A stretch of 64,000 nucleotides of DNA from Nemertoderma westbladi (Eukaryota; Animalia; Xenacoelomorpha): contig JAUCBJ010007789.1 of assembly GCA_032718475.1 (NCBI GenBank), forward strand, positions 40,011-104,010. The letters are read 5' to 3'. The stretch's first letter is position 1, and every line of letters begins with the position of its first letter. The position numbers and the translations under genes were made by a program. A model generated the notes under the pieces. The model was not told the DNA's origin. It did no database searches and was given only the letters and a program-made list of their open reading frames with translations. Positions 861-39,905 of the stretch are shown here, in pieces.

Positions 861-3731
861 CTAAGGTGTCCCTTCTAATAGACAGCATTTCCCTACAGCT
901 CTCCTGTAGGTTTTTCTGTCTTTCGCACCTATCTTGCCACCTATTCGCACTTCTACCGATCGGACTCTTCCGTCCTCATCGGAGTAAGTGCCTACGACTC
1001 TCGCCAACCGCCACTGGTTGTTGATGATAGTATCATCCGTAACGATTACGAGATCTCCCTCTCTTAACTCCCTATTTGACTTCCTCCACTTGCTTCTTTT
1101 GTGGAGCGTGGGTAGGTATTCCTCAACCCACCTCCTCCAATACTCTGCGCTTATTGCTTTTGCGACCTTCCAACTCTGGCGGGAGTGTATGTCATCTGGG
1201 TCTACACCCCGCATATCGATGGTCGCTGGCCTTTCCATTAGAAAATGGCTGGGTGTCAGCACATCTAATGACTCAGGGTCATCATTCTCTGGATATAGCG
1301 GTCTGCTATTAATGATCCCCTCGCACTTTGCAAGCACTGTCCTCAAGACGTCCTCAGTGACCATGTGTGTGTTCATTAGCTTCGTCATAAGACGTTTTGA
1401 ACTGCCCACCAGTCTCTCGACGCATCCTAGTGTATGTGGTGCATACGGCGTCCTTCTCTCCCACTTTACTTGTCGTCGTCTCATGGCCGCCCTGACTTCC
1501 TCCCCTTCCAAGATGTCCAAGGCCTCTGCCATCTCGTTCTCTGCACCCACAAAGTTGGTTCCGCTGTCGGAGTACATTACTGCGATCGTCCCACCTTTGC
1601 GGTCTCTGAATCTTTCCAATGCATTAATAAATGCTGATGCGGTTGCATCTTGGGCGAGTTCTATCCCTACCGCCCGCGTGTTGTTACATACAAAGATAAT
1701 ACCGTAGCGTTTCTCCGTGTGCCGCATCACCTTGATCTTTATCGGCCCGAACATGTCCACACCGCAATGTGTAAATGGCGGGTCGTGTTGTCTTACTCTA
1801 CTCGCTGGTAGTGGTGCCATCTCTTGTACGGCTCTCTCCTTCTTCGCTCGTCGGCAGGTCTGGCACTGCCCCACTACCGCTTTTACCTTCTTCCTCAACT
1901 GCTTGACCCAAAAGGTCCTCCTTATCTCCGTGAGGGTTCGGTTGGTGCCCCCGTGCAATATCGACTTATGGGAGTCCCAGATAATCTGGTGGACTATTGG
2001 CGATCCTGTGGGAATGATGATGGGTTTCGGTGGTATGACTATGCTGTTGTTGTATCCCACCCTAGAATTCATTACTAGAATCCCGTCGTCATTAAGTTGT
2101 GGCGACAGCGTGATCAGCTCGCTGTCCCGTCGGAGGTGCTGTTGGTTACCGACACGTTCCACCTCGTCGCCATAGTTCTTCCGTTGTTCATAGCGGATGA
2201 CTGCCTTGGCCGCTCCTTCCAGATCTATGGTTGTCCTGATCTTCTTGTCTTTGCCAACTCCCGCGAGGAAATTTCCGAAGGCTCTCCAGTACGCCACTAA
2301 TTTCTTGGTCTTATACCAACTAGAGCTGTAGCTGAGGAGTTTATCTGTTGGGTTATCGCACAGTTCTTCTGGTTTAGGTTGCACGTCCCTTATCTCCCTC
2401 ACCATCTGGGAGTATATCTCTTCTCCCTCTGAATCTCCCTCTTCTCCTTCTGACACTACCTCTCCTGAGTCCGGGTCCACCTTTCTCATCGGCGGCCAGG
2501 CCTCCTTGTCACTCAGAAACTGCGGCCCGTGTTGCCACAATCCTTCCTTTTTTAAGAAAGTGTGGCGTGCCACGCCCCTTGATAACAAGTCCGCTGGGTT
2601 CTCGTCCGTCGGGCAGTAGTGCCACCTTTCCAATTCTGTGGTCGCCCTTATCTCGTCCACCCTATTCGCGACGAATATTGGGTATCTCGTCCTTTCGTTA
2701 TGTAGCCAACCAAGCACTACCATGGAGTCCGTCCAGTAGTGTGTCTCCACTATGTTGGGAATAGTATCCACTAGGTAGGCTGTGGCTCTAACTCCTAGTC
2801 TCGCAGCTGTCAATTCTAATTTGGGAACTGATGCTGAATCTGGCGGCGTTGACTTTGCTTTGCTAAATGCCAGTCTGGGCTTGTGAGCCCCCTCTCGTTG
2901 TACTAAATAGAGTGCCGCTCCGTACGCCTCCAACGACGCATCAGAGAACATGTGTAGGTCCAGATTCGTCATGTTCCCACCCGGGAAATACACTCGTGGC
3001 ATGTTGTATGTTCCCATCTTCTCCAAGTCTCCTGTCCACTTACTCCACTGTTTCTTGATTTCCTCTGGTACCTCTACGTCCCACTCATCCTTCAATTTGT
3101 ATACTCTCTTGAGTATCTGTTTCCCCGTGACTAATAATGGGGATGCTAGACCTAGGGGATCGTATATCCTTGCTATATACGACACATAGCCCCTCTTCGT
3201 GTGGATGTCTGCGCCCTCCTGGCTCAGCTGATACTTCAGTTCGTCTGTCTCTCTGTTCCACACGATTCCCAATGCCTTCTGTTGAGATTCTGTTCTCTTG
3301 TTCGCCATGTCCTGCCCTTTGGCTGTTGTGGGATTATCCATGGTCGATTCTGGTCTCTTATCTTCTATCGCCTTGATAAATTCCTCCGAACTGGATTGGA
3401 ATTTGGTCAGGTTAACGCCGGATCCTTTTAGGATGTCGCGAACCTCGCGCCCCGTGTCCAGTATCTCCTTAACCGTATTTCCAGACTCCATTCCGTCGTC
3501 TACGTAGAAGCCGCGTCGAATCATATCGACGGCCCTAGCGCTATATCTATCCTCCTTCCCCTTCACTGTATCTCTTACTGCCATAGTCGTCGTAAATGAA
3601 GACGACTTGGCTCCCATGTTTTGTACTACCATCTTATATGCCGGTATAATTGACGGTTCTTCCTCGCCGTTATACCACAAGAAGCGTTGACTGCCGCTAT
3701 CTTCCTCCGTTACACGGACTTGGTTGAACAT
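861..3731 (-). CDS. pol: Pol C-terminal part: RT, RNase H, integrase (BEL/Pao)
   Basis: 956-aa ORF with YVDD, DAS/ELE/DS RNase H residues, zinc-binding H..H..C..C and DDE integrase core. It continues upstream (CLNDYLLEGPN..DIEGMF) across a frameshift near 3845. Confidence 0.95.
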   Translation of the reverse strand: MFNQVRVTEEDSGSQRFLWYNGEEEPSIIPAYKMVVQNMGAKSSSFTTTMAVRDTVKGKEDRYSARAVDMIRRGFYVDDGMESGNTVKEILDTGREVRDILKGSGVNLTKFQSSSEEFIKAIEDKRPESTMDNPTTAKGQDMANKRTESQQKALGIVWNRETDELKYQLSQEGADIHTKRGYVSYIARIYDPLGLASPLLVTGKQILKRVYKLKDEWDVEVPEEIKKQWSKWTGDLEKMGTYNMPRVYFPGGNMTNLDLHMFSDASLEAYGAALYLVQREGAHKPRLAFSKAKSTPPDSASVPKLELTAARLGVRATAYLVDTIPNIVETHYWTDSMVVLGWLHNERTRYPIFVANRVDEIRATTELERWHYCPTDENPADLLSRGVARHTFLKKEGLWQHGPQFLSDKEAWPPMRKVDPDSGEVVSEGEEGDSEGEEIYSQMVREIRDVQPKPEELCDNPTDKLLSYSSSWYKTKKLVAYWRAFGNFLAGVGKDKKIRTTIDLEGAAKAVIRYEQRKNYGDEVERVGNQQHLRRDSELITLSPQLNDDGILVMNSRVGYNNSIVIPPKPIIIPTGSPIVHQIIWDSHKSILHGGTNRTLTEIRRTFWVKQLRKKVKAVVGQCQTCRRAKKERAVQEMAPLPASRVRQHDPPFTHCGVDMFGPIKIKVMRHTEKRYGIIFVCNNTRAVGIELAQDATASAFINALERFRDRKGGTIAVMYSDSGTNFVGAENEMAEALDILEGEEVRAAMRRRQVKWERRTPYAPHTLGCVERLVGSSKRLMTKLMNTHMVTEDVLRTVLAKCEGIINSRPLYPENDDPESLDVLTPSHFLMERPATIDMRGVDPDDIHSRQSWKVAKAISAEYWRRWVEEYLPTLHKRSKWRKSNRELREGDLVIVTDDTIINNQWRLARVVGTYSDEDGRVRSVEVRIGGKIGAKDRKTYRRAVGKCCLLEGTP

Positions 3732-3832
3732 GCCTTCTATGTCACATGTGAAGGCGTGTTTCCCATTTCTAAATCTAAGTAGGACCTCTATCCCCGAGTT
3801 GTATATGTTTGGACCTTCTAACAGATAGTCGT

Positions 3833-4953
3833 TTAAGCATTTTCCGTTGGCTTTGCCGATGTGTCAACTACCATCCGCAGTTTACCTTTCTTTGGGTCTA
3901 AAGCCACGTGGAGTGGCAGGTAATATGTCCTGTCCGTGTTCGGTTCGTTGACCGGTAAATCCACGGCCCATCCTTTCTCGACGTACTTCTTGATCGTTCT
4001 GTGGATGTACTCATTCTTCTCGGGGCTCCGTTTTAGTGTTTGTTTCAGCTTGCGGAGTCTAGTGAGTACCATCCCTCTATTATCGGGCAGTGGTAACTTC
4101 GGTAGTTTCCATACCATTCCTATGGTGTACCGCCCCTCGTCGCACTTCATAGACTCCTCTACGCTCTGCTGAGCCTGTTTGTCTTCCACCGAGGTCCCGA
4201 CCCCGGTCTCCTTTAATCCTTCAAAATCCTGTCTGAGCAGTCTTTTAAGTTGCTCCTCTGCTCTCTCATCACTCATTTCCTGCGTAGTTCCCGCGAACAT
4301 GCATCCTGATGTCTCCGACGTCCTAAATGGTATCTTGCTCTTGATTGGGCCACTTAGCGTCCACCCGAATGGTGTCAGTATTGCCACCGGGTCAGACTGC
4401 TTGTCTTCGCCGAAGACCGTTTGCATTCTTTCGTGGGCCGTTGGGCAGTCCATTCCTACTATGATGGATACCTTCCTAACGTCCACATCTGGGATTGAGA
4501 AGTCAATATCGTCCAGAAATTTATATTGTTCGACCTCGATGTTGGTTGGCCGTCTGGCATTGATGTTTATTGACTCTATCACTTGGATGGGGTCGATGCT
4601 CGCCCCATAGTCGCATCCTGGTGCTATTGCTGCGATGGCGCACCGTCCGGTTCTCATCTCCAGGACCTCATCTTTGCTGGAGATGGTCTTTACCGCCATT
4701 CTACTTGGCCTCGTTCTCAATCCTATTTCTTCGGCCACCCAATCCTCGACTAGTGTGAAGGCAGCTCCACTATCAACCAGATCGTTGTTACTGATCGATT
4801 GCCTTCTCCAATCACTCGCACGGGTACTACCCCAAGTAGCACCGTTCCTCTCTTTTTTGCCTCTACTGTGCTCGTTGCCATCGTTTGGCCTTTCCTTTGA
4901 CCGAACTTGACCGGCGTCTCCTTGCATTCCCTAGCCCTATGTCCACTCATCAC
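3833..4953 (-). pseudogene. Aspartic protease and RT N-terminus of element 1, frameshifted
   Basis: LLGVVPVRV (4750-4953 frame) joins LVDSGA..IIVGMD..TPFGW..YYLPLH..KLRMVVD (3833-4927 frame). Frameshifts near 4780 and 3845. Confidence 0.88.
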
Positions 4954-7900
4954 ACATCGCGAGCAGATCTTATTGCTCGACGCATAATCTATCTGATCTT
5001 GCTAGATAGCGCTTGCCAGTACCTGCAGTTCATGGTTTGATGAAGCGCATTTGTATGTAGCTGGCATTTGCTCTTTGGGTCGTAGCCCTCCTTATGCAGT
5101 GCATCGCGTATCGCAGATGCGTTTGTACCAAAGTCCCTACTATTCTGATTGTTTGGATTCGGCCTACTGGACGTACTGGGGTTATATTTATTTGTGTTGT
5201 TATTGTTCCCCTGTCCGTTCCATGGTGTGGTCTTACTTTCGGCTACCTGTGGACTTGCAGTCCCCTGCGTCGCTGCATATGGCAGTGATTGCCTGAGCCT
5301 CGGTAATGCGTTTGATGTATTGTGCTCTGGTTTCGGTCTATGGTGATCCGTTTTCGGTCCCTTTCCCAGGCTATCCTCGCTATAGACTGGGTCGGTTATT
5401 AGTTCAGCTTCGTAGTTTAAGAAGCTTGACATTTCTTCTAAACCCGGTTCTGCACCCTTCCTATCTCGAGTTTAGAAAGCGATTTTCCTCCACTTGTTGC
5501 GCAACCACATCGGTAGTGCCTGCGCTATTGTGGTGTTGTTGTTGGACGCGTTGAGTTCGTATGGTGCGTCTAGCGTCTTTAACACGATCAGCACCTTCTC
5601 GACCTTGTTCGAAAATGTCTTAATGCTAACGGGATTATCCTGTAGGCCACCCGATCTTATGCCTCTCAGGGTCTGCCTGATGATCTTGGCCGGGTGTTCG
5701 TATTCCCTGTCCAGTGCCCGCCATGCTGTCGTGAAGCCGCCCTCTATGCCCTGATATTGCCTCACGATGTCGTATGCTGGGCCTCCTGTGTATACTTGCA
5801 AATACTTTAGGCACTCCGCCTGCGTTAAGTTCTTTGTTAGTATTTCATTGCTATACATACGCCGAAACTGGAGATATTCTTCCGGCCTACTCCCATCGAA
5901 TTTGAATGGTTCCACGGGTGGTAATTCGATCCTTGTTTTTAATGCATCGATCAATGTGGCCATCCCCATCGCCTGCGCTTCCAATGGATTCGATGGATGT
6001 TGTATAGTTCCTTCTGTTGGGTGCGGTCCGCTCGTTCTATTTTCTGCCTTTCTATGGCTTGGGTATATCATTGGGGGTAGCGGCCCCCTCCATATTTCTG
6101 TGTCACACGACCTATTTTCGTCCAATGGTCTCGTTGTCCTTGCTCCTATCGGGGTATATTGTTGATATTGCGATGGGGGAATGTCACCCTGTCCCCCCCC
6201 CACCGGTATGCTTGGTATTGGGGTTGATGTTAATATATTGGGGCCCATGCATCTATCCGCAATAATTCCCCCCTCCCCTGGGTATATGTTATATCCTTTC
6301 GTGCTGTAGTCATTCTGCTGCACTGGTACCGGTATAGGCCTATCAGCTTCTGGCCTACCTGCCGGTATGTACTCTGCGACTTCCGGGTTTAATTCCGTCG
6401 TCCGCGCTATCCTATCGCCTACATTATTTCTGTCAGCATGGCCTATGGTATGTGCAGTAAGGCCTACAGTATGTCCTACAGTCTGTATGTATTGCTCGGT
6501 ATCGAAGTTTATTCTTCTCGAATAATCCTCCCCGCGGTTACCGTACTCTCGTTCCGTAGGTATATCCCGTCGGAAAGTTTCTCTTCGACCCTCTCCACCA
6601 CTCTCGTCTATGTGCCGGTACATCGTGTACCCCTCCCTCGACGCGTAACGCGTCTCGTTAGGTCGCGTCTCTCCGGGGCGACGGCAATCTCCCGAAGTTC
6701 GACCCCACCGACTCTCTCTTTCCATCTCGACTACCGATGGCTCGCTATCCGTCCTCGCTCTCCTGTCGTTCGCGGCGATACTTCTTCTGCTGTCTTCTCT
6801 TCTTCTCCTCTCAGTGCAGTATTCCCGCTCGTGAGATCTCTCGTCGACCTCCCGGTTAAACTCCACTGTTCTTCTTCCCTCTTCTGATCGGGCTCGACGC
6901 TTCGTCCGCCCTCTCGCGACGTCAACCTGCTTCTTTCTGCTCGATCGCACGCCGCTGGGGATACTCGCAATCCCCCTATTACTCTCTGTCGCCGGGTGTT
7001 GTGGTTTACCTGATTCGGCCCGCGCATTACCCGCTGACGGGTGTGGGACACTCTCTGCCCCCCCCTTCTCGCCACTAACTTCTCGTTGTGGGGCTCCTGT
7101 AGCCCCCCCCCCCCCACTCGCCACATATCACACCGCTACCTCCAACTTCTCTTCTACACCCCTCTCCAGTCGACACTATATTTCTACTGTGGCTGGGTTC
7201 GCTTACCCCTGCCTCTCTCTCCACTACTACTTGGCCTATCGGGCCTACTCCGGGTTGGCTCAACCCCGCCACCTCCTGCCTACTAACTACGTGGCCTACC
7301 AGGCCACCGTCGGGTCGACTCAAACCCGCCACCCCCTGCCTACTAACTACGTGGCCTACCAGGCCACCGTCGGGTCGACTCAACCCCGCCATCTCCTGCC
7401 TACTAACTACGTGGCCTACCAGGCCGCCGTCTGTCGGCTCATGCACGTCCGACGCGTTCGCGTTAATAGCACCTATATTAGAAACGGAATTATTTTGTTC
7501 GTTCGGAATAGAATCATTTGGATTACTTTGTGCGACTACATTATTTGAATTATTTTGTAAATTCGGGCTTGGATTATTATTTAAATTATTTGAGTTATTA
7601 TTATTTTCTAAATTTAAATTATTATTCGGATTATTTTGCACGTTTAAATCGAAATTATTATTTAAGCTATCTGTATTTAAATTCAAATTACTACTACCAG
7701 GCAAAGTATTTCCTGCAATATAAGTTTGGTTAGGATTATCCGATACGGTACCATTAATATTAACGTCGTTTACTGTAGCATTATTATTACCCCCCCGCCC
7801 GTACGGTCACACCAGTTTCGTGTCTGTCGTGCGGTCTCTGTAAGTGGGGCATTAATAAATGTATCCACGGCCCTTGGCTCCTCTAAAATATTCGAGCCAG

Positions 7901-9320
7901 TCCCACTCTCAGACGCCCCTATCCGTGCCAATTCTAGTTCACGGATGCGTCTAGCCTTGTACTCTATAAGCTCCTTTTGCTCTCTTTCCACCTTCTCTTG
8001 CACACGCTTCTCTCTTGCTACTCTCTCCCGATCCTCCTGTGCGTTCTGGTCGGCCAATTCCGCCTCTCTCTTAGCTCGCTCCCTTCGTCTCGCCTCACGT
8101 TCTCTACGCACACTTTCCTCTCTCGCCTCACGTTCCTTGCATTCCTTTTCCTCTCTCGCCTCACGTTCCTTGCGTTCTGCCTCACGCTCTTTGCATTCCT
8201 TTTCCTCTCTCGCCTCACGTTCCACGCGTTCCTTTTCCTCTCTCGCCTCACGTTCCTTGCGTTCTGCCTCACGCTCTTTGCGTTCACTTTTCTCTCTCAC
8301 CACACGCTCCTCTTGTTCCCTCCTTTCTATTTCCTCACACTCTTTAAGGCTTTCCACGGCCTTCTCGGCCCTCTCCCTGGTTTCTCTAATCAGTACCGCT
8401 TCCCTCTCTAGTTGTATTCTCCCCTCCTCTAACCGTCTATTTAACTCTCTCTGACCTTGTTCTATCAGGTCGAGATGGTACGTGGCATTTATCTCTCTCA
8501 CCCGTCTTTCTTTCACAGAGGATGTAGCAGACTTATCGGTTACAACGGATTCCCTCCGCCTTCCCGACCTACTAGCTTTCCCCCTCTTCCCAGAACTTCC
8601 CCCGACCGACGAGATCGAATCCTCGGGCTCAACCTCGGATTCGCCCTCCTCAGGTCTCCTCCAACCCTCAAATTTTACACCCTGGGCATCGACTAAGTAT
8701 GGCCCTACGTACACTGCACTAGGTTGCATACCCCTACACCGCCATAAATCACACAGTTCCTCTGCAACCCCTCTCGCTCTCTCCTTGGCCAGTTCTCTTT
8801 GCCCGAAACGCATTAGATAGCTAAAATGTCTATTCGACTCACCTAGTCCTCTCGCTAACTTCACCTCATCTATCTCTGTTCCCTTCTTGGCCTCCTTTAG
8901 TAGCTTCCGGGTCGCGTTGTAGGCCCGTCGAAGTCGATCAGAAACCCTGACGTCCTCGTTGCCGACCTCTCCTCCGTCTCTCCGGGTCCGACGCCGTACC
9001 GGCGGCCCCACCGTCGCCGTTCCGGTGGGCCATCCGTCGCCCTCGGCCTGTGGCTGGCCGGCGACATCGGTCTGTCGACCCTCGTTCCGTGTCGACTCGT
9101 CTCCTTCTCCTTCCAACTCACCCTCTCGGTCTCTCAACTCGACCCACCCTCCTCTCAACTCGGCCTCTGGCTCCAGACGGCCCCCCTCGTCCTGAACTGC
9201 CGGATCACCCGTTACCGATGGGTCCGGCGTCGTGGGCCTATACCGCCTGGTCGCGGCCTCACGGATCGTTAGTTCTTCGTCCGGGGTCCGCGTCGGTGTC
9301 GTCTCTCCTGACTGACTCAT
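4954..9320 (-). pseudogene. gag: Very long Gag region of element 1 (E/R/K coiled-coil, Asn-rich tract, 20-aa repeats, capsid-like core, zinc knuckles), broken into 4 ORFs
   Basis: ORFs 7770-9320, 7075-7704, 5472-7124 and 4989-5432 join via G-run shifts (7790, 7103) and an in-frame TAA at 5472. FDGSRPEEYLQF..LKYL..DPVYS is the typical BEL Gag core. Knuckles CQLH..H..C and CSRC..GH..C. Confidence 0.85.
7235..7435. repeat. 60-bp coding tandem repeat (~3.5 copies; DGGLVGHVVSRQEVAGLSRP)
   Basis: caaccccgcc..cctgcctactaactacgtggcctaccaggcc at 60-bp period; about 2.5 copies at 14920-15065 in element 2. Confidence 0.85.
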
Positions 9321-9389
9321 CTCTCCTCTATAGATTGGTGGCTGGTAGATTACTGAGTTTAACTAGGGCGGCAGCTTTGATTTAATTAC

Positions 9390-9927
9390 TGTGACGGGAT
9401 CCAAGAAGGATCCCGGTTTATCTGGTTGTCAATTCACGCGTCCCCGCCGTGTGTGAAAGATAAAAGCGTTTACGTTGATCGTTGTATATAATATTCGGGA
9501 TATGTATAGTATAGATATAGATAATGGATAAGATAAATATTGTTGTACGCGGAAGGCGGGAAACGGTAATTAAAATCCCGGTTCTTCCCTAGCTAAACTA
9601 TTGCTACTGTAACACCAATAACACAGTGATAACTGAAGTGAGATGATTACTGGTACCTAATGATATATTGCACGGTTTGGCCTTGCTACTGTACCTAGCC
9701 GATGCTTCCCCCCCTGATTGGCTAATATCCCTGTTGGCGCCCTTTGGAGTGTTCCCGTTCACTCCACCTATTCTCTCTCGGTTAGGGGTTTGGCCCCTGA
9801 CCCTTATTGTGTTTCTCCTTCCCATTTTGTTGGGGTGACACGAGGTTGGGTAATCAATCTCGTGCTCCCAATATTGCTTAACGGTTAACTTTATGGGTTT
9901 GGGTTAGCGGAATTGAATAAGCTAACA
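9390..9927 (-). repeat. 5' LTR of element 1 (538 bp)
   Basis: Minus strand begins TGTTAGC and ends GTCACA (TG..CA). Collinear and clearly homologous with the element 2 LTRs. Confidence 0.92.
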
Positions 9928-10396
9928 TATAATAATATAAGAGTTTATCAGTGCTTCAGAGAGATAATAATATAAGAGTTTATCAGCGCTTCAGAGAGAT
10001 AATAATATAAGAGTTTATCAGTGCTTCAGAGAGATAATAATATAAGAGTTTCAGCGCTTCAGAGAGATAATAATATAAGAGTTTCAGCGCTTCAGAGAGA
10101 TAATAATATAAGAGTTTATCAGCGCTTCAGAGAGATAATAATATAAGAGTTTATCAACGCTTCAGAGAGATAATAATATAAGAGTTTATCTGTGCTTCAG
10201 AGAGATAATAATATAAGAGTTTATCAGCGCTTCAGAGAGATAATAATATAAGAGTTTATCATTGCTTCAGAGAGATAATAATATAAGAGTTTATCAGCGC
10301 TTCAGAGAGATAATAATATAAGAGTTTATCAGTGCTTCAGAGAGATAATAATATAAGAGTTTCAGCGCTTCAGAGAGATACTAATATAAGAGTTTC
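9928..10396. repeat. 35-bp satellite, ~13 units between the two LTR elements
   Basis: Unit AGAGAGATAATAATATAAGAGTTTATCAG(T/C)GCTTC, with a 33-bp variant. Confidence 0.98.
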
Positions 10397-10925
10397 TGTG
10401 ACGGGATCTACGGATCCCGGTTTATCCGTTGGGTTTTCTATCCACGCGTCCCCGCCGTGTGTGAAAGGTAAAAGAGTTCCGATGTTGGGTAATATGTATA
10501 AAGGTATAATAGTCTGATAGTTGATATAGTATAGTATGACACAACAGGTAATATATAATGGCGGTAGCGGACGGTGACAGAAGTCCCCGTTCCACCCTAC
10601 TGATCTGACTGAGTAAACTGAATGAATGATTACAGGTTACTGGTTATATTGCACGGTGGCCTTATTGCTACTCAATCGATGCCTTTCCCCCCTCTGATTG
10701 GTTGATATCCCTGTTGGCACCCTTTGGAGTGTTTCCCTTCACTCCCTGTGTTCTCTCTCGGTTAGGGGTTTGGCCCCTGACCCCTATTGTGTGTGTCTCC
10801 TTTGGGGCCTATTGTCCCCGTTTACTGGGCTGACACGAGGTTGATTGGTAATCAACCTCGTGCTCCCAATATTGCTTTATGGCTCACTCTATGGGTTTGT
10901 GTTAGCGGAATTGGATAAGCTAACA
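10397..10925 (-). repeat. 3' LTR of element 2
   Basis: tgtgacgggatc...gctaaca; direct repeat of 16734-17262. Confidence 0.97.
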
Positions 10926-10963
10926 CTCCCCCCCATGCTATCTTCCCGGTGAGAAGATAGCAT
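10926..10963 (-). promoter_or_regulatory. Polypurine tract and adjacent hairpin
   Basis: Minus strand G-run plus AG immediately precedes the 3' LTR TG. Upstream of it is an 11-bp inverted repeat atgctatcttc/gaagatagcat. Confidence 0.85.
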
Positions 10964-11639
10964 CCAACTAAAGTGCGCTACAATTCCGCTGGATCCCGAT
11001 CTAGCATCGGGTGTGGGGTGGGTATATTTTTTCTCGGAGTCGGCTTTCCAGGCAGCTCCCTATGGGTATGATGTCACTACCCTCTGGCGTCTCGTGTCGG
11101 GCCGATCGTGCGCTTCTCTCACACAATTTTTGTTTCCCCAACACTCTCACCACTCTACTCCAACTCTCGCATACTCCCGGACCTCCTCGTCCCACACTCT
11201 TCCTCTCACTTATCCCCCCCCACACTTGAATTGCGCCCACGCTCTCTTCGCACTCCGCACTATTACTCCATCCCTCATTGACTACCTTATCCCTTCTGAC
11301 GAATCTCACCCCCCCTCCGTGCCGTCGCACTCAGGAAATGTGAAATCGTCTGGCGTCTTGCCCCTAGTGCCATAGTCACTTAGCCCCCCAGTCCCAGTAG
11401 CTAATTGAGAAAGGTTGTATGACTATAGTACTTACACCACTCTCTCCGCACTCCGCACTATCACCTCTCCACTCTCTTGTCACTCCCTAAGGCTTTAATC
11501 TCTAATGCTACCCCTGTGCTATCATACTATCTACCTACTGCTTACTAACTCTAACTATCTAACTAACTCTGCTAACTCTACTCCACTAGCTCTGCTAACT
11601 CTACTAACTAGCTCTACTAACTCTACTCCACTCTTCTAA

Positions 11640-12900
11640 CTACGTGGCGCTTGCGGTGCCCACAACCCCTTTACTACTACTTCCTTCTACGTGGCGCTTG
11701 CGGTGCCCACAACCACTCTACTATCTGGCACCCTTTGTGCCCTTCTACTACTCAACTACCTCTCTAACACTCTAACCATACTACTTGGCACCCTATGTGC
11801 CCTCTCTACTACTCCACTCTCTGGCACCCTATGTGCCCTCTCAACTACCTCTAACACTCTAACTCTACTACCTGGCACCCTATGTGCCCTCTCTACTACC
11901 TCTAACACTCTAACTCTACTACTTGGCACCCTATGTGCCCTCTCTACTCTTCTACTACCTGGCACCCAATGTGCCCGTCTCTACTCCTCTACTCCCCCTT
12001 TACGTCTCATCGCCTACACGTGACGCTCTGAGTGCCGGCAGAGTGGGTACGTTAATTATGTGAACTACTACTGACTCTACTAACTCTCTTCTAACTCTAC
12101 TAACTCTTTTTGTGCCCGGCACCTCTTGTGCCCGGCACCTTCTAACTCTACTAACTCTCTACTAACTCAACTAACTCTACTACTAACTCAACTAACTCTA
12201 CTACTAACTATTTTTGTGCCCGGCACCTCTTGTGCCCGGCACCCACCCTAATTAACATACCCTGCTCTTACATCAAACACGTCATCACGCCCGTGCCCCA
12301 CTAAGTTCAGCGCATTCCCTACTAACTCTAACTGCGTGGCGCTTACGGTGCCCACAACCCTCTACTGCTACTACTAACACCCCTAACTAGTGGTACTACG
12401 TACCCTCTTACTACTCTAGCTCTCTCTACTAGCTAGCGGTACAACGTACCCTCTTACTCTTACTAACTCTCTAACGGTACTACGTACCCCTTAACTCCTA
12501 CTCTCTAACGGTACTGCGTACCCTCTAACTCTTACTCTCTAACGGTACTACGTACCCCTTAACTCCTACTCTCTAACGGTACTGCGTACCCTCTAACTCT
12601 CTAACTAACTAGTGGTACTTACGTACCCTCTAACTCTAACTAACTAGCGGTACTTACGTACCCTCTAACTCTCTTCTACTAACGGTACTACACGTACCCT
12701 CTTACTAACTCTTCTACTAACGGTACTACACGTACCCTCCTACTAACTCTTCTACTAATGGTACTACACGTACCCTCCTACTAACTCTTCTACTAACGGT
12801 ACTACACGTACCCTCCTACTAACTCTTCTACTAACGGTACTACACATACCCTCCTTTAACTAACTAACTAACTAACTAACTAACTACCTAACTTCTACCT
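11640..12900. repeat. Hairpin-unit arrays (GGCAC..GTGCC and GGTAC..GTACC) in the 3' untranslated region of element 2
   Basis: About 8 ggcac-N5-gtgcc units (11727-12240) and about 13 ggtac-N3-5-gtacc units (12390-12850) in CTA-rich spacers. Confidence 0.88.
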
Positions 12901-12924
12901 ACTCTATTATTTAATTATTTTTAA

Positions 12925-15900
12925 TTAAATAATTATTTTATATTTTGTGCGTGGGAAGGGCGTCTCGCCCTCATTCCCACCCCCCTCAGTCCAAAACTTT
13001 GGACGACTAAAAACTCTCACGTGCCCCTTCTTCCAGTAGGCACTCTCCTGCTGCCCTCCTATACGTCCTCTAACTCTTCGCCACACTCTCTTCGACACTA
13101 CCTCCGCTAGCCTCCCCCTTCGTATGTGCGCTGGCATTAAAGGCCTCGTCGACCCCCGCTCGTTCCTTGGAACACATGGCGTCTGCCCGTGCAATGCCCC
13201 CTCGCACTGTGTCCGTCCTGCGTGTGTATGCAACACGCCTCCTTCTACTTTCCCGACTCCCTTATGTTTGCTCATGGGCTTCTCTGCCCCTGGTCTAGTC
13301 CTTTCACATCCTCTCCCTTTCCAACACTCTCCGGATCTGTGTCCTTTTACCACACATCGATGACATAGTCCGTTTGCGTCTGTGTAGGCTACACGATCTC
13401 GTTTGGGCAACGCTTGCCAGTACTTGCAACTCCTGGTCTTATGGGTTCCGTCCCGATGTAATTGACATTGGAATCCTGGATTATAGCGTTTCCTGTATAG
13501 TCCTTCACGTATCGCGCTTAGGTTTATATGTACCGATTTAATGTTTTGGTTGTCTAGACTCGGCCTACTGGGTATATTGGGATTGTGTTTATTTTTGGTG
13601 TTATTTTCTTTCTGTCCCCGCCACGGTGTGGCCCTGCTCCCAGCTAACTGTGGACTAGCAGTCCCCTGTACGGCCGCGTGTGGTGGTGACTGTCCGCACG
13701 ACCTGCTCTCGTCCAGGGAGTTCGATGTTCTTGCTCCTATCGGGGTATATTGTCGATATTGTGATGGGGGAATGTCACCCTGTCCCCCCCCGGCCGGTAT
13801 GTTTGGTACTGGGGTTGATGTTAATACATTGGGGCCCATACGTCTATCTCCAATAACTCCCCCCTCCCCTGGATATATGTTATGTCCCTGTGTATTATAG
13901 TCATGCTGTTGTACCGATATAGGCCTACCTACCTCTCGCCTACCTACCGGTATGTACTCCGCGACTTCCGGGTTTAATCCCGTCGTTCGCGCTACCCCAT
14001 CGCCTACTCTATCTCTCCCAGCATGGCCTATAATAGTATGTGCAGTAAGGCCTACAATATGTCCTGCAGTCTGCATGTGCCCTTCCGAACCGAAGTTTAT
14101 TCTTCGCGAATCTTGTATCTCCCCGCGACTACCGTACTCTCGATCGGCAGCTATATCACGTCGGGAAGTTTCCCTTCGATCCCCTATCCTGCTCTCGTCT
14201 TCGTATTTGTACGTCCTGTACCCCTCTCTTGGCGTGCGGTGCGTTTCTCCGGGGCGACGGCAATCTCCCGAAGTTCGACCCCACTGATTCCCTGACTCCA
14301 TCTCTACTATCGACGGTCCGTTATCCGTCCTCGCACTCCTATCGTTCGTGGCGACACCTTTTCTACTATCTTCTCTTCTTCTCTTTTCTGTGTAGTATTC
14401 CGGCTTGTGAGATCTCTCGTCGACCTACCGGTTAAACTCCACTGTTCTTCTTCTCTCTTCTGGTCGGGCTCGACGCTTCGCCTGCCCTCTCGCGACGTCA
14501 ACCTGCCTCTCTCTGCTCGATCGCAAGCCGCTGGGGATACTCGCAATCCCCCTATTACTCTCCGTCGCCGGGTGTTGCGGTTTACCTAGCTCGGCCCGCG
14601 CATTATCCGCTGACGGCTGTGGGACACTCTCTACCCCCCCTCTCTCTCTACTAATCTCTCGCGGTGGGGTGCCCGTAGCCCCCCCCCACCCGCCACTTCT
14701 AACTTCACTATTTCTTACCACACTTCTATACCCCTCTTGTGGGGCATTCTCTGCCCCCCCTCTTTCGCCACTAATCTTATGTGGTGGGGCGCCCGTAGCC
14801 CCCCCCCACCCGCCACATCTAACTTCACTATCTCTCACTTCGTCTCTACACCCCTCTCTAGTCGACGCACTGTCTCTACTACGGCTGGGTCTATTCACCC
14901 CCGCCTCTCTCTCTACTACTGCGTGGCCCATCAGGCCTACTTCGGGTTGGCTCAACCCCGCTACTTCCTGCCTACCAACTACGTGGCCTACCAGGCCGCC
15001 GTCGGGTTGGCTCAACCCTGCCACCTCCTGCCTACTAACTACGTGGCCTACCAGGCCACCGTCTGCCGGGTTATGTACGTCCGACACGCTCATATTAATA
15101 GCACCATTCCCAATATTATTTGTTAAATCAATTAAATTATTAGAATTTGAAATGGGATTATTATTTAAATTATTTAAATTACTTGGATCACTACTATTCT
15201 CTAAACTTAAATTATTATTCGAATTATTTTTCGGGTTTGAATTGAAATTATTATTTAGAGTATTTGTATTTAAATTTAAATTACTACTACCCGGTAAAAT
15301 ATTATTTCCTGTAATAAAGGGATTAGGGTTATTTACTACGGTACTATTAATATTATCTACTTCTAACGTACTATTATTACCCCCCCCCCCCCCCCGCCCG
15401 TACGGCTACACCAGCTCTGGTTCTCTCGCTCGCTGCTTGTAAGTGGGGGCTCACTCTCTGACATTTCCAACCGCGCCAGTTCTAGTCGGCGCTGGTCTAG
15501 TTTGGCTTGATATTGCGCAAGCCTCCCTAGCTGAGCACGCAAATCTTCCCGCTCACGCTCTATCTCTATCTCTCTCTTTATGCACTCTCGTAAACTTTGC
15601 TCGGCCAACTCGGTATCTCTCGCAACCATCTCAAGCCACGTCGCCGGCTCGTCCCCTACTCTCATCTCCCGCTCTCTACACTCCTTGACTCTCTCTCTAT
15701 CCTCCCTTGCCCACTCTCTTTCTCTCTCCAACCATGCGGTTTCCTCTCTCAATTGTCTCTCTAACTCATTCTGCTCTGTCGCCACCATCGCTAATTCATA
15801 CGTCAGATTTATTTTCAGCACCCTTCTTTCTTTCGCGGAGGATGTAGCAGACTTATCGGTTGCGACGGACTCCCGCCGCCCCTCCGTCCTATCAGCTTTC

Positions 15901-16644
15901 CCCCGCCTCCCGGAACTTCCTCCGACCGACGAGACCGAATCCTCGGGTTTAACCTCGGATTCGCCCTCCTCAGGTCTCTTCCAACCCACTAATTTTATAT
16001 CCTGGGCATCGACTAAGTATGGCCCTATGTACACTACACTAGGTTCCATACCCCCACATTCCCATAGTTTAATCAGTTCGTTGGCAACCCCTCTCGCTCT
16101 CTCCTCGGCCAGTTCTCTCTGCCCAGAACACACTAGGTGATCAAAGTATCTGTTCGACTCACCTAGTCCTTTCCTCAGTCTCACCTCGTCTATTTTCGCC
16201 CCTCCTTTAGCCTCTCTCAGTTGCTCCCGGGTCGCGAGGTAGGCCCGTCGAAGTCGATCAGAAACCCCGACGTCCTCGTCGCCGACCTCTCTTCCGTCTC
16301 TCCGGGTCCGACGTCGTACCGACGGCCCCACCGTCGCCGTTCCGGTGGACCGTTCGTCGTCCTCGGCCTGTGGCTGGCCGGTGACATCGGTATGTCGACC
16401 CTCGCTCCGCGTCGACTCGTCTTTCTCTTCTCCTCCCTTGTCGTCTCCTTCCCTCGACTCGCTCTCCGATTGTAGACGACCCCCCACATCTTGGTTCGCC
16501 GGGTTGCTCGTTGTCAACCTGCGTCGACGTGGTCGGCGTAGCATCGATCGGCGTCGTGGGTTCGTATCGTCTCGCCGTGGCCTCGCGGATCGTTAGATCG
16601 TCGTCCGGGGTCCGCGGCGGTGTCGTTCCTCTATCTCGACTCAT
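12925..16644 (-). pseudogene. Gag-derived ORFs of element 2 (capsid core and pol deleted; zinc knuckles retained)
   Basis: ORFs 16258-16644, 15363-16544, 14425-15093, 14307-14546 and 12925-14301 align to element 1 Gag; CQLH..H..C and CHRC..GH..C present. Confidence 0.85.
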
Positions 16645-16733
16645 CTTCGTCTTTAGTAGCTGGTCGTCGCTAGCTAGGACGGTAGCTCTATTCTATCTCT
16701 GTCAGGGCAGCTGGGCGGATCTAGTTCTGTCAC

Positions 16734-17262
16734 TGTGACGGGATCTACGGATCCCGGTTTATCCGTTGGGTTTTCTATCCACGCGTCCCCGCCGTGTGTG
16801 AAAGGTAAAAGAGTTCCGATGTTGGGTAATATGTATAAAGGTATAATAGTCTGATAGTTGATATAGTATAGTATGACACAACAGGTAATATATAATGGCG
16901 GTAGCGGACGGTGAAAGAAGTCCCCGTTCCACCCTACTGATCTGACTGAGTAAACTGAATGAATGATTACAGGTTACTGGTTATATTGCACGGTGGCCTT
17001 ATTGCTACTCAATCGATGCCTTTCCCCCCTCTGATTGGTTGATATCCCTGTTGGCACCCTTTGGAGTGTTTCCCTTCACTCCCTGTGTTCTCTCTGGGTT
17101 AGGGGTTTGGCCCCTGACCCCTATTGTGTGTGTCTCCTTTGGGGCCTATTGTCCCCGTTTACTGGGCTGACACGAGGTTGATTGGTAATCAACCTCGTGC
17201 TCCCAATATTGCTTTATGGCTCACTCTATGGGTTTGTGTTAGCGGAATTGGATAAGCTAACA
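16734..17262 (-). repeat. 5' LTR of element 2
   Basis: Direct repeat of 10397-10925, TG..CA ends, followed by TSD gtttc. Confidence 0.97.
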
Positions 17263-20200
17263 GTTTCAGCGCTTCAGAGAGATAATAATATAAGAGTTTA
17301 TCAGTGCTTCAGAGAGATAATAATATAAGAGTTTATCAGCGCTTCAGAGAGATAATAATATAAGAGTTTATCATTGCTTCAGAGAGATAAAAATATAAGA
17401 GTTTATCAGCGCTTCAGAGAGATAATAATATAAGAGTTTATCAGTGCTTCAGAGAGATAATAATATAAGAGTTTCAGCGCTTCAGAGAGATAATAATATA
17501 AGAGTTTCAGCGCTTCAGAGAGATAATAATATAAGAGTTTATTAGTGCTTCAGAGAGATAATAATATAAGAGTTTATCAGCGCTTCAGAGAGATAATAAT
17601 ATAAGAGTTTATCAGTGCTTCAGAGAGATAATAATATAAGAGTTTTTCAGCGCTTCAGAGAGATAATAATATAAGAGTTTATCAGTGCTTCAGAGAGATA
17701 ATAATATAAGAGTTTATCAGTGCTTCAGAGATATAATAATATAAGAGTTTATCAGCGCTTCAGAGAGATAATAATATAAGAGTTTAACAGCGCTTCAGAG
17801 ATATAATAATATAAGAGTTTCAGCGCTTCAGAGAGATAATAATATAAGAGTTTATCAGCGCTTCAGAGAGATAATAATATAAGAGTTTATCAGCGCTTCA
17901 GAGAGATAATAATATAAGAGTTTATCATTGCTTCAGAGAGATAATAATATAAGAGTTTCAGCGCTTCAGAGAGATAATAATATAAGAGTTTCAGCGCTTC
18001 AGAGAGATAATAATATAAGAGTTTATCAGTGCTTCAGAGAGATAATAATATAAGAGTTTATCAGCGCTTCGGAGAGATAATAATATAAGAGTATATCATT
18101 GCTTCAGAGAGATAATAATATAAGAGTTTATCTGTGCTTCAGAGAGATAATAATATAAGAGTTTATCAGTGCTTCAGACAGTTTACCAGTGCTTCAGAGA
18201 GATAATAATATAAGAGTTTCAGCGCTTCAGAGAGATAATAATATAAGAGTTTCAGCGCTTCAGAGAGATAATAATATAAGAGTTTATCAGTGCTTCAGAG
18301 AGATAATAATATAAGAGTTTATCAGCGCTTCAGAGAGATAATAATATAAGAGTTTATCAGTGCTTCAGAGAGATAATAATATAAGAGTTTATCAGCGCTT
18401 CAGAGAGATAATAATATAAGAGTTTATCAGTGCTTCAGAGATATAATAATATAAGAGTTTATCAGCGCTTCAGAGAGATAATAATATAAGAGTTTAACAG
18501 CGCTTCAGAGATATAATAATATAAGAGTTTCAGCGCTTCAGAGAGATAATAATATAAGAGTTTATCAGCGCTTCAGAGAGATAATAATATAAGAGTTTAT
18601 CAGCGCTTCAGAGAGATAATAATATAAGAGTTTATCATTGCTTCAGAGAGATAATAATATAAGAGTTTCAGCGCTTCAGAGAGATAATAATATAAGAGAT
18701 TCAGCGCTTCAGAGAGATAATAATATAAGAGTTTATCAGTGCTTCAGAGAGATAATAATATAAGAGTTTATCAGCGCTTCAGAGAGATAATAATATAAGA
18801 GTTTATCAGCGCTTCAGAGAGATAATAATATAAGAGTATATCATTGCTTCAGAGAGATAATAATATAAGAGTTTATCTGTGCTTCAGAGAGATAATAATA
18901 TAAGAGTTTATCAGTGCTTCAGACAGTTTACCAGTGCTTCAGAGAGATAATAATATAAGAGTTTCAGCGCTTCAGAGAGATAATAATATAAGAGTTTCAG
19001 CGCTTCAGAGAGATAATAATATAAGAGTTTACCAGTGCTTCAGAGAGATAATAATATAAGAGTTTATCAGTGCTTCAGAGAGATAATAATATAAGAGTTT
19101 CAGCGCTTCAGAGATATAATAATATAAGAGTTCATCATTGCTTCAGAGAGATAATAATATAAGAGTTTATCAGTGCTTCAGAGAGATAATAATATAAGAG
19201 TTTATCAGCGCTTCAGAGAGATAATAATATAAGAGTTCATCAGTGCTTCAGAGATATAATAATATAAGAGTTTATCAGCGCTTCAGAGAGATAATAATAT
19301 AAGAGTTTATCAGCGCTTCAGAGAGATAATAATATAAGAGTTTATCAGTGCTTCAGAGATATAATAATATAAGAGTTTATCAGTGCTTCAGAGAGATAAT
19401 AATATAAGAGTTTATCAGTGCTTCAGAGAGATAATAATATAAGAGTTTATCAGCGCTTCAGAGAGATAATAATATAAGAGTTTATCAGCGCTTCAGAGAG
19501 ATAATAATATAAGAGTTTATCAGCGCTTCAGAGAGATAATAATATAAGAGTTTATCAGCGCTTCAGAGAGATAATAATATAAGAATTTATCAGCGCTTCA
19601 GAGAGATAATAATATAAGAGTTTATCAGCGCTTCAGAGAGATAATAATATAAGAGTTTATCAGTGCTTCAGAGATATAATAATATAAGAGTTTATCAGTG
19701 CTTCAGAGAGATAATAATATAAGAGTTTATCAGTGCTTCAGAGAGATAATAATATAAGAGTTTATCAGCGCTTCAGAGAGATAATAATATAAGAGTTTAT
19801 CAGCGCTTCAGAGAGATAATAATATAAGAGTTTATCAGTGCTTCAGAGAGATAATAATATAAGAGTTTATCAGTGCTTCAGAGAGATAATAATATAAGAG
19901 TTTATCAGCGCTTCAGAGAGATAATAATATAAGAGTTTATCTGTGCTTCAGAGAGATAATAATATAAGAGTTTATCAGTGCTTCAGAGAGATAATAATAT
20001 AAGAGTTTATCAGTGCTTCAGAGAGATAATAATATAAGAGTTTATCAGCGCTTCAGAGAGATAATAATATAAGAGTTTATCAGCGCTTCAGAGATATAAT
20101 AATATAAGAGTTTATCAGTGCTTCAGAGAGATAATAATATAAGAGTTTATCAGTGCTTCAGAGATATAATAATATAAGAGTTTATCAGTGCTTCAGAGAG

Positions 20201-23200
20201 ATAATAATATAAGAGTTTATCAGCGCTTCAGAGAGATAATAATATAAGAGTTTATCTGTGCTTCAGAGAGATAATAATATAAGAGTTTGTCAGTGCTTCA
20301 GAGAGATAATAATATAAGAGTTTATCAGCGCTTCAGAGAGATAATAATATAAGAGTTTATCAGTCAGTGCTTCAGAGAGATAATAATATAAGAGTTTATC
20401 AGTGCTTCAGAGAGATAATAATATAAGAGTTTATCAGTGCTTCAGAGAGATAATAATATAAGAGTTTATCAGTGCTTCAGAGATATAATAATATAAGAGT
20501 TTATCAGCGCTTCAGAGAGATAATAATATAAGAGTTTATCAGCGCTTCAGAGAGATAATAATATAAGAGTTTATCTGTGCTTCAGAGAGATAATAATATA
20601 AGAGTTTATCAGTGCTTCTGAGATATAATAATATAAGAGTTTATCAGTGCTTCAGAGAGATAATAATATAAGAGTTTATCAGTGCTTCAGACAGTTTATC
20701 AGTGCTTCAGAGAGATAATAATATAAGAGTTTATCAGCGCTTCAGAGATAATAATATAAGAGTTTCAGCGCTTCAGAGAGATAATAATATAAGAGTTTGT
20801 CAGTGCTTCAGAGAGATAATAATATAAGAGTTTATCAGCGCTTCAGAGAGATAATAATATAAGAGTTTATCAGTCAGTGCTTCAGAGAGATAATAATATA
20901 AGAGTTTATCAGCGCTTCAGAGAGATAATAATATAAGAGTTTATCAGTGCTTCAGAGATATAATAATATAAGAGTTTATCAGTGCTTCAGAGAGATAATA
21001 ATATAAGAGTTTATCAGTGCTTCAGAGAGATAATAATATAAGAGTTTATCAGCGCTTCAGAGAGATAATAATATAAGAGTTTATCAGCGCTTCAGAGAGA
21101 TAATAATATAAGAGTTTATCAGTGCTTCAGAGAGATAATAATATAAGAGTTTATCAGTGCTTCAGAGAGATAATAATATAAGAGTTTATCAGCGCTTCAG
21201 AGAGATAATAATATAAGAGTTTATCTGTGCTTCAGAGAGATAATAATATAAGAGTTTATCAGTGCTTCAGAGAGATAATAATATAAGAGTTTATCAGTGC
21301 TTCAGAGAGATAATAATATAAGAGTTTATCAGCGCTTCAGAGAGATAATAATATAAGAGTTTATCAGCGCTTCAGAGATATAATAATATAAGAGTTTATC
21401 AGTGCTTCAGAGAGATAATAATATAAGAGTTTATCAGTGCTTCAGAGATATAATAATATAAGAGTTTATCAGTGCTTCAGAGAGATAATAATATAAGAGT
21501 TTATCAGCGCTTCAGAGAGATAATAATATAAGAGTTTATCTGTGCTTCAGAGAGATAATAATATAAGAGTTTGTCAGTGCTTCAGAGAGATAATAATATA
21601 AGAGTTTATCAGCGCTTCAGAGAGATAATAATATAAGAGTTTATCAGTCAGTGCTTCAGAGAGATAATAATATAAGAGTTTATCAGTGCTTCAGAGAGAT
21701 AATAATATAAGAGTTTATCAGTGCTTCAGAGAGATAATAATATAAGAGTTTATCAGTGCTTCAGAGATATAATAATATAAGAGTTTATCAGCGCTTCAGA
21801 GAGATAATAATATAAGAGTTTATCAGCGCTTCAGAGAGATAATAATATAAGAGTTTATCTGTGCTTCAGAGAGATAATAATATAAGAGTTTATCAGTGCT
21901 TCTGAGATATAATAATATAAGAGTTTATCAGTGCTTCAGAGAGATAATAATATAAGAGTTTATCAGTGCTTCAGACAGTTTATCAGTGCTTCAGAGAGAT
22001 AATAATATAAGAGTTTATCAGCGCTTCAGAGATAATAATATAAGAGTTTCAGCGCTTCAGAGAGATAATAATATAAGAGTTTGTCAGTGCTTCAGAGAGA
22101 TAATAATATAAGAGTTTATCAGCGCTTCAGAGAGATAATAATATAAGAGTTTATCAGTCAGTGCTTCAGAGAGATAATAATATAAGAGTTTATCAGTGCT
22201 TCAGAGAGATAATAATATAAGAGTTTATCAGTGCTTCAGAGAGATAATAATATAAGAGTTTATCAGTGCTTCAGAGATATAATAATATAAGAGTTTATCA
22301 GCGCTTCAGAGAGATAATAATATAAGAGTTTATCAGCGCTTCAGAGAGATAATAATATAAGAGTTTATCTGTGCTTCAGAGAGATAATAATATAAGAGTT
22401 TATCAGTGCTTCTGAGATATAATAATATAAGAGTTTATCAGTGCTTCAGAGAGATAATAATATAAGAGTTTATCAGTGCTTCAGACAGTTTATCAGTGCT
22501 TCAGAGAGATATTAATATAAGAGTTTATCAGCGCTTCAGAGATAATAATATAAGAGTTTCAGCGCTTCAGAGAGATAATAATATAAGAGTTTATCAGTGC
22601 TTCAGAGATATAATAATATAAGAGTTCATCATTGCTTCAGAGAGATAATAATATAAGAGTTTATCAGTGCTTCAGAGAGATAATAATATAAGAGTTTATC
22701 AGTGCTTCAGAGAGATAATAATATAAGAGTTTATCAGTGCTTCAGAGATAATAATATAAGAGTTTCAGCGCTTCAGAGAGATAATAATATAGGAGTTTAT
22801 CAGTGCTTCAGAGATATAATAATATAAGAGTTCATCATTGCTTCAGAGAGATAATAATATAAGAGTTTATCAGTGCTTCAGAGAGATAATAATATAAGAG
22901 TTTATCAGCGCTTCAGAGAGATAATAATATAAGAGTTTATCAGTGCTTCAGAGAGATAATAATATAAGAGTTTATCAGTGCTTCAGACAGTTTATCAGTG
23001 CTTCAGAGAGATAATAATATAAGAGTTTATCAGTGCTTCAGACAGTTTATCAGTGCTTCAGAGAGATAATAATATAAGAGTTTATCAGCGCTTCAGAGAG
23101 ATAATAATATAAGAGTTTATCAGTGCTTCAGACAGTTTATCAGTGCTTCAGAGAGATAATAATATAAGAGTTTATCAGTGCTTCAGAGATAATAATATAA

Positions 23201-24580: not shown

Positions 24581-25085
24581 TTATTAAGCAATATTTGTCT
24601 TTCAGATTACCATAGTTCTAAAAACCTGTTGGTACCTATGAAGTTGGTAATGTATAGATGTATATATTATATTTGTAAGTATAGTTTGTTAGGAGTTGGA
24701 TGTACTTGTGCAGTATTTACAGTATGTACATGTACAATACAGTAGTACTATGTATTTATTGTATTTATGTTGGCTTTTTGCTTATACTGTATATATGTAA
24801 TGTAATGTACTGTATATTGTGTATTGGTACGTATTTTTATGAGTCGTATGTATATATTGTATTTATGTGTATATTTATATAATGAATATATATATATATT
24901 ATTATTGTATACATAAATCTACATTGTGCATGTTTACATGGAAAGGGAACAGGTTACAGTGGTTTCTAACCAAAAACCATAAACAAAACTTTATTGCATT
25001 TGAGTAGGAGAGAACTTTTTCTAATTGCGGTCAGAGTGCTCCGCAATCTGAACACTTTACCTAACGACCCTATTATTATACGAAC

Positions 25086-34030: not shown

Positions 34031-34266
34031 TTAGGCCTAATATACACCAACTGCAAAGTACTGTAAATAAACTATAATTTTAATTATTTTACTAATTTTA
34101 CTTGAATCTTAAATACCATTATATCCGTATTTTTATTATAATAGTACAGTACATATACGCTAATTTACGGAAGCCCACAACTGTCATGGACAAAACATTA
34201 ATAAAACTTGGACGCAATTAAATAAATTTCATACAAAGCCATAGAAAGCATGCCATTTCAAAATTC

Positions 34267-34852: not shown

Positions 34853-34946
34853 TTATTAGGAATATTACTGCTCTCATGTATATGACCATCCTTGCTGCCC
34901 ATTACTATCTAACAGATTACCGTGGTATGGTAGTGGTTGGCCTATA

Positions 34947-39669: not shown

Positions 39670-39905
39670 ACGCCCTCAGGGCAAAATGCCCTCAGGGCAA
39701 AACGCCCTCAGGGCAAAATTCCCCTCAGGGCAAAATGCCCTCAGGGCAAAATGCCCTCAGGGCAAAATGCCCTCAGGGCAAAATGCCCTCAGGGCAAAAT
39801 GCCCTCAGGGCAAAATGCCCTCAGGGCAAAATGCCCTCAGGGCAAAATGCCCTCAGGGCAAAATGCCCTCAGGGCAAAATGCCCTCAGGGCAAAACGCCC
39901 TGATG
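39670..39905. repeat. Right subterminal 16-bp array (~14 copies, inverted relative to the left array)
   Basis: gccctcagggcaaaat tandem units. Confidence 0.95.

Follow-up and report, generated by a model that had tools for sequence, protein, structure and literature searches.

Self-priming of reverse transcription by an LTR retrotransposon's own RNA is described for Tf1 and Tj1 in the available text of two papers (PMC7175516, PMC4600332). According to the same text, the initial 11 bases of Tf1 RNA are paired and RNase H cleaves it between bases 11 and 12, which leaves an 11-nt self-primer (PMC7175516, PMC4600332). For the Tcn1 chromoviruses and the TAR group (Houba, Osr-1) of plant Ty1/copia elements, self-priming has been predicted from DNA, the criterion in the accessible part of that work being that 10 bp or more, beginning 0–5 bp past the LTR, find their complement within the 5' LTR (PMC6317226). 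Elements of the BEL/Pao superfamily are described as tRNA-primed: the ICTV profile of the Belpaoviridae (Semotivirus) gives an 18-nt site that complements the host's tRNA-Arg or tRNA-Gly, with host tRNA as the primer (PMC8742986), and the BEL/Pao element Achilles has a tRNA-Tyr site in the portion of its description available to us (PMC4580426).

The preliminary description of the locus studied here knew of no report of self-priming in BEL/Pao, and none appeared in the literature that we searched, which mostly excludes subscription papers. In the text available of two BEL/Pao surveys, one makes no mention of PBS, tRNA or priming (PMC554778) and the other no mention of primer, PBS, tRNA, intron or splicing (PMC3118150); the search also covered the accessible parts of PMC2774666, PMC8220671, PMC4580426, PMC3601003 and PMC5443660. 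The same literature, with the original Suzu and Cer descriptions outside its scope, contains no report of a splice-built primer in BEL/Pao.

We analysed a window of 64,000 nucleotides from Nemertoderma westbladi, in which two related LTR elements, element 1 (E1) and element 2 (E2), lie on the minus strand. As judged from their sequences, E1 and E2 are likely to prime minus-strand synthesis from their own RNA in the manner of Tf1. The Cer7 element of Caenorhabditis elegans, also a BEL/Pao element, may encode its own tRNA-like primer, for which our literature search returned no confirmation; if this is right, Cer7 is a case of a BEL/Pao element supplying its own primer, but as a separate tRNA-like RNA at a TGG-type site and not as a piece of the LTR transcript.

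As in Tf1, Tf2 and Tj1 of the Tf1/sushi group (Ty3/gypsy), which use no tRNA, the site adjoining the LTR of E1 and E2 complements the element's own LTR, and in relatives of these elements the complement is mostly 11 bp long. Unlike Tf1, E1 and E2 belong to BEL/Pao, and their pairing core of 9 bp would probably lie at the end of a longer 5' piece, which an outer helix holds, and not at the first bases of the RNA. In the relatives, unlike Tf1 as the available text describes it, the primer would mostly be split by a GT..AG intron. The Pol of E1 is that of BEL/Pao and not that of a Ty3/gypsy chromovirus, and the window family would thus work like Tf1 without being a member of the Tf1/sushi lineage. 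The likeness to Tcn1 and TAR is that self-priming is predicted from DNA by the same kind of criterion; the difference is that superfamilies and hosts are others and that the 9-bp core falls just below the 10-bp threshold in the accessible text of PMC6317226, a criterion that the intron-split primers of the relatives would escape entirely. The feature would be self-priming as known elsewhere, now within a superfamily whose described mode is tRNA priming, and the relatives extend it more boldly.

Two BEL/Pao elements in one satellite array

The 5' LTR of E1 (9390..9927, 538 bp, TG..CA) is followed by a gag-pol region (861..9320) that is spread across six reading frames and encodes the domains DUF1759, Peptidase_A17, an integrase zinc finger (Integrase_H2C2) and DUF5641; the 3' LTR and 3' end lie beyond the window edge. 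E2 is delimited by two LTRs of 529 bp (5' LTR, 16734..17262; 3' LTR, 10397..10925) that differ at 2 positions, and by a 5-bp target duplication (17263-17267 and 10392-10396). Its internal region (10926..16733) has a polypurine tract (10926-10934) next to the 3' LTR and contains gag-like frames with 71% identity to the gag of E1; no match to pol was found in it, and E2 is thus non-autonomous. The E1 LTR is 72-73% identical to both E2 LTRs, with 374 of 504 aligned columns in agreement. Both elements look defective.

The two elements are embedded in a 35-bp satellite, which occupies 9929-10395 and 17266-24581 of the window; the 5' flank of E1 is satellite, and the target duplication of E2 lies clean inside it. 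That one family inserted twice in one satellite array may reflect targeting.

Assignment to BEL/Pao rests on Pol. In a domain profile search E1 matches Peptidase_A17 at 3.7e-40, its homologues carry PF05380, and the domain set as a whole (Peptidase_A17, DUF5641, Integrase_H2C2, DUF1759) is of BEL/Pao type; an aspartyl protease match is present only below the cut-off. The LTRs (529-538 bp, TG..CA) fall within the 0.2-1.2 kb of the superfamily, and the polypurine tract of E2 agrees as well. Like the Belpaoviridae (Semotivirus), the elements have two LTRs, a polypurine tract and the order gag, then protease, RT, RNase H and integrase. Unlike the profile, neither E1 nor E2 has a TGG, and the 18-nt site for a host tRNA 3' end is missing from them and from eight relatives with fixed LTR ends; the assignment is kept despite the missing site because it rests on Pol. 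E1 is at most 38% identical to any homologue found.

We note two further observations on these elements. The long 3' non-coding regions of E1 (148-736) and E2 (11562-12893) contain related tandem repeats, and a third, distant BEL/Pao pol remnant lies at 28879-30562 on the minus strand, with about 30% identity to E1; no LTR pair was found for this remnant (28.9-30.6 kb).

Covarying pairs between the primer-binding position and the LTR

The primer-binding positions of E1 (9381..9389) and E2 (16725..16733), the 9 nt that adjoin each 5' LTR, start with GT and contain no TGG. The preliminary description had stated that no TGG occurs anywhere between 5' LTR and gag, and scanning both leaders returned none. 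The window contains no tRNA gene, and comparison of 9250-11000 with Rfam returned nothing at E up to 1. In E1 the 9-mer is complementary to its own LTR, as that description had it, at all nine positions of a partner at 9566..9574, which ends with AC and is the predicted 3' end of the self-primer; extension to 9577 gives 11 bp with one bulge. The E2 9-mer had been said to pair with both LTR copies. This holds for the 3' LTR (10574..10582, 9/9 pairs) but not fully for the 5' LTR (16911..16919, 8/9 pairs), because one of the two differences between the E2 LTRs, at 16915, sits within the partner; the resulting mismatch within the helix is a point against self-priming, as is the core of 9 bp in the window family vs 10-12 bp in relatives.

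The partners lie at equal offsets, 177 (E1) and 178 (E2) from the LTR end when counted inclusively (176 and 177 in the earlier count). Four of the nine positions are different in the two 9-mers; as each 9-mer matches its own partner, all four changes are compensated. Primer-binding position and LTR partner thus pair and covary, in a family represented by two copies only. Duplex energies with the own partner are -6.8 and -12.5 kcal/mol; when the partners of E1 and E2 are exchanged, pairing is lost (-0.6 and -0.1 kcal/mol). A complement to the 9-mer arises anywhere in a dinucleotide-shuffled LTR in 160 of 20000 shuffles for E1 and 18 of 20000 for E2, and a rough p of 3e-5 is obtained for four matched changes out of four at the LTR divergence rate, a figure from two sequences with sites assumed independent. 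The pairing in E1 and E2 consists of 9 contiguous positions, with no spliced extension. An intron concealed in either element was considered and rejected: AG is found neither before nor inside the partner.

DNA contigs of four sequencing runs over 9250-9930 come from a high-copy, heterogeneous family, and among the pieces listed none covers both site and partner. Among the 40 of 216 variants listed, one at 9570, within the partner, reaches about 40% of depth in X1-X3; its base is that of E2 and would leave a G:U pair in E1. Some contigs (X2, X3, X4) show a joint at 9349-9393 that jumps back over the primer-binding position by 43-44 nt, suggestive of a tandem duplication, in some copies, of the site together with the leader start.

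Beyond the 9-bp pairing, an outer helix is predicted between the 5' segment and the leader. Its arms in E1 are 9587..9599 (mean pair probability 0.98) and 9356..9368, with predicted pairing extending to about 9619 and 9334, respectively; in the E2 fold they are 16928..16950 and 16697..16719. The earlier counts for these arms are exact, with 12 Watson-Crick pairs and one G:U of 13 in E1, and 17 and two G:U of 23 in E2. [quoted passage not shown] On folding the leader, a check that the preliminary description had suggested, the outer helix and this hairpin come out as stable in both elements, the main stems of the outer helix having pair probabilities of 0.97-1.0 and the hairpin 0.98-0.99 in folds from 9634 or 16956, but the 9-bp helix lies outside the lowest-energy fold. 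Its pair probability is 0.14-0.40 in E1, falling to 0.03-0.09 when E1 is folded from a start at 9580, and 0.0 in the E2 5' LTR as it stands, which counts against the proposal. Forcing the 9-bp helix costs only 1.3 kcal/mol in E1; forcing the 8 pairs of the E2 5' LTR costs 6.3 kcal/mol, also a point against.

The forced fold is nested: the 9-bp helix leads on to an inner helix whose other strand is a U5 block that is conserved. In the constrained fold of E1 the 5' arm of the inner helix (9555..9565) comes directly after the predicted cut site and its 3' arm (9439..9448) lies inside a block conserved between the LTRs, and in E2 the 5' arm (16897..16910) forms two 5-bp stems with 16784-16793. In strength the outer duplex exceeds 32 of 32 foreign pairings in E1 and 30 of 32 in E2.

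The earlier description had placed the transcript starts near 9599 and 16950. From promoter motifs we favour candidate starts at 9634 and 16956, where a TATA-like box (from 9667) and an initiator-like TCAGTT (9636-9631) occur within 9631..9667 of E1, and TATAA (from 16985) and TCAGTT (16958-16953) within 16953..16985 of E2. The spacing from TATA-like box to TCAGTT is 33 nt in E1 and 29 nt in E2, and the arrangement is conserved in both LTRs. By these motifs the candidate starts lie 60 nt (E1) and 37 nt (E2) upstream of the partner, and the 5' piece would be 69 and 46 nt long, not 34-40 nt as first proposed.

In the mechanism that we propose, the transcript would start upstream of the LTR partner, and the outer helix would, in the modelled fold, clamp the 5' segment onto the leader. 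Where the 9-bp helix has its 3' end, the inner helix and the LTR-end hairpin would meet in a junction. By analogy with Tf1, the element's RNase H would cut after AC (9566 in E1), and the freed 3'-OH, paired to the first base past the LTR, would prime at the LTR edge.

Relatives with a tRNA site or a self-complement

Relatives were gathered by a homologue search and an alignment of 41 proteins, which gave 79 loci on metagenome contigs, 45 on genome contigs and one viral locus, with 20 additional regions from the same bins; no usable relative came from the viral contigs. Many of the records among the genome contigs (L080-L124) are titled bacterial or archaeal genome bins and contain intact BEL/Pao elements, most likely as animal host DNA binned in.

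Complementarity in relatives, another check suggested at the outset, was scored in elements whose 5' LTR end is fixed by both LTRs, and a self-complement was counted from 9 contiguous or 11 spliced pairs upwards. One locus (L051) was left out for an uncertain LTR end, and five others are not counted separately, one being of the L130 family and the rest duplicates of L097 and L098. TGG sites and LTR self-complements are mutually exclusive in this set. A self-complement is present in 9 of 10 elements without TGG, namely eight relatives, E1 and E2 (7 of 8 when the latter two are removed), and in 0 of 10 families with TGG no more than 8 nt from the LTR, in which the best contiguous match is 4-7 and no spliced match is found. 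Cross pairs between elements reach the same threshold in 10 of 380 cases. The exception, L089, has no TGG within 8 nt and yet attains only 8 contiguous pairs, which counts against the rule.

In the relatives the partner often starts directly after a pyrimidine-rich AG, and the remaining complement stops directly before an upstream GT donor. From these motifs the primers are predicted to be split by an LTR intron and joined by splicing. Of 71 loci with a gag call, 42 entered a blind scan; they had 300 nt or more upstream, and five duplicates and the viral locus had been excluded. The scan found a complement of at least 11 bp (11-12) across an exact GT..AG junction in 12 of the 42, and in 13 at 10 bp. 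When donor or acceptor is moved by 1-4 nt the number falls to 0-3 of 42, and cross pairs give 15 matches in 1722, four of them between sister elements. Two of the relatives, L083 and L084, differ by three compensated changes, all in the upstream exon.

A second pass over 40 other loci (nine without a gag call), with GT and AC imposed, added one spliced case (L090, 11 bp) and one contiguous case (L079, 12 bp) and recovered another contiguous one (L087, 11 bp); 25 of 31 further loci had no match in this pass, a point against the proposal, although many of them are on contigs that contain little LTR. Three matches were discounted, one as a palindrome that matches itself (L043) and two as 9-nt matches (L036, L015). 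With L035 included, the totals are 15 spliced and 2 contiguous, intronless cases (L087 and L079), with three sister pairs among them. The predicted introns are 77 to 1022 nt long. A site that starts with GT and a partner that ends with AC occur in all 15 relatives that were found without imposing them (13 from the blind scan, L035 and L087), three of which have one extra pair. E1 and E2 have the same GT and AC ends; they lack the other trait of the group, a helix of 10-12 bp that usually spans a GT..AG intron.

Two minor points concern the ends of the predicted primers. In L083 (1356-1865) and L084 (1381-1773) an AATAAA begins 1 nt past the predicted primer end, so that the R region beyond the cut would be very short. 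A micro-exon, considered on account of a TATA peak about 30 nt before the start of the 11-nt primer, is unconvincing, with TATA-like hexamers at -21 to -33 in 5 of 12 relatives.

Two additions to the mechanism are proposed. The 11-bp primer helix of the relatives would arise only once the GT..AG intron of the LTR is spliced out, and plus-strand synthesis that copies the attached primer would re-template the site from the primer in every cycle. Such re-templating would explain both the exact covariation and the match of the relatives' DNA site to a spliced junction. Set beside them, the window family has no intron, its core is shorter and its outer helix stronger. The earlier idea of self-priming from a 5' fold-back thus gains support from the covariation in the window and from the relatives; the outer helix, in contrast, is no better than foreign pairings in most relatives and hence not general, and the system is not confined to the window family.

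Other primer sources and placement of the window family

An improbable alternative is that the primer is a host RNA, an internal tRNA fragment or another small RNA, and that the helices are a regulatory fold (in translation, dimerisation or packaging) that masks the site. Host tRNA does prime BEL/Pao elements according to the ICTV (PMC8742986), priming by half-tRNAs without TGG is known in copia lineages in the available text of PMC6317226, and the stable predicted helices are the outer helix and the hairpin, not the 9-bp helix. One fixed host RNA cannot, however, explain why the sites of E1 and E2 disagree in 4 positions out of 9, and those of the relatives vary widely, while each follows its own LTR. 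The pairing also begins at the LTR edge and is missing from 10 of 10 TGG elements.

It is quite improbable that the primer, though the element's own RNA, derives from the 3' LTR copy or acts in trans from the dimer's other RNA, its end perhaps being the polyadenylation cut. The partner occurs in both LTRs, E2 has 9/9 pairs only with the 3' copy, and complementarity in DNA cannot separate the copies. A primer that ends at a polyadenylation cut is opposed by the position of the signals. AATAAA and ATTAAA are absent from the 45-60 nt before the partner's end, and the sole poly(A)-like hexamer from the partner to the LTR end is a GATAAA at 9417..9422 on the minus strand (counterpart in the E2 3' LTR at 10426), about 145 nt downstream; no canonical poly(A) signal occurs downstream of the partner in E1 or E2, which for its part counts against self-priming as proposed. 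Of 14 spliced relatives, 13 have an A(A/T)TAAA downstream of where the primer is predicted to end, so that cleavage would fall past that point. The nested outer and inner helices, too, suit a 5' fold-back.

That the pairing arose by chance, or survives from a single local inverted duplication and now has no role, is very improbable: there are only two family members, the E1 9-mer is AT-rich and both elements look defective, but all four changes are matched at an equal offset, the shuffle counts given above are low, and the pattern recurs across relatives with controls.

In a tree of 29 rows, from which rows with fewer than 780 aligned residues were excluded and for which quick trees were used, 12 self-complementary relatives fall on one side of a single branch (one change, support 93), a split that none of 500 shuffles matches with as low a number. 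E1, on a long branch, joins an unresolved fork together with TGG elements; free trees set it apart from the self-complementary group, and by path length its closest row is that of the TGG element L050, which counts against the proposal. Constraining E1 into the group is not rejected (p-AU 0.386; 17 rows, LG+G4), a result that does not itself demonstrate membership. The preliminary description had spoken of an independent self-priming system: self-priming is supported, but at this p-AU an independent origin is not established. The window family is either an intron-free offshoot of the self-complementary group or a separate origin, and we favour the former, to which the shared GT and AC ends point.

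A wider proposal, which could as easily prove wrong as right, is that a large animal branch of BEL/Pao abandoned tRNA priming and that most of its members have their primer made by the host spliceosome, which joins two LTR exons. The window family would then be a deeply diverged, intron-free offshoot, in which a 9-bp core and a long outer clamp replace the 11-bp spliced helix.

If self-priming is confirmed, these elements would form a third self-priming lineage beside Tf1/sushi and the plant TAR copia elements, in a main group of animal LTR retrotransposons, and would bear on a question posed in the accessible text of PMC3601003, whether self-priming is an ancestral trait or was invented more than once. 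A splice-dependent primer would tie reverse transcription to the host spliceosome, a host control point that is absent in tRNA-primed elements, and a splice-built primer could explain why sites are missed by annotation pipelines that seek TGG or an unbroken complement. The spliced relatives and the window family, which has no intron, invite a natural comparison, in which start site, splice junction and cut site are each predicted exactly.

Elsewhere in the window, 34156-40017 is bounded by a 116-bp inverted repeat (34156-34269 and 39902-40017) with 16-bp tandem arrays inside both ends. Its interior contains an ORF with an integrase core (34947-35645, PF24764) and, at 36997-38432 on the opposite strand, two ORFs without a Pfam match, and the whole looks like a DNA transposon with cargo. 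Two single long plus-strand ORFs without a Pfam match, of 588 aa (42538-44304) and 1226 aa (52311-55991), are probably host genes.
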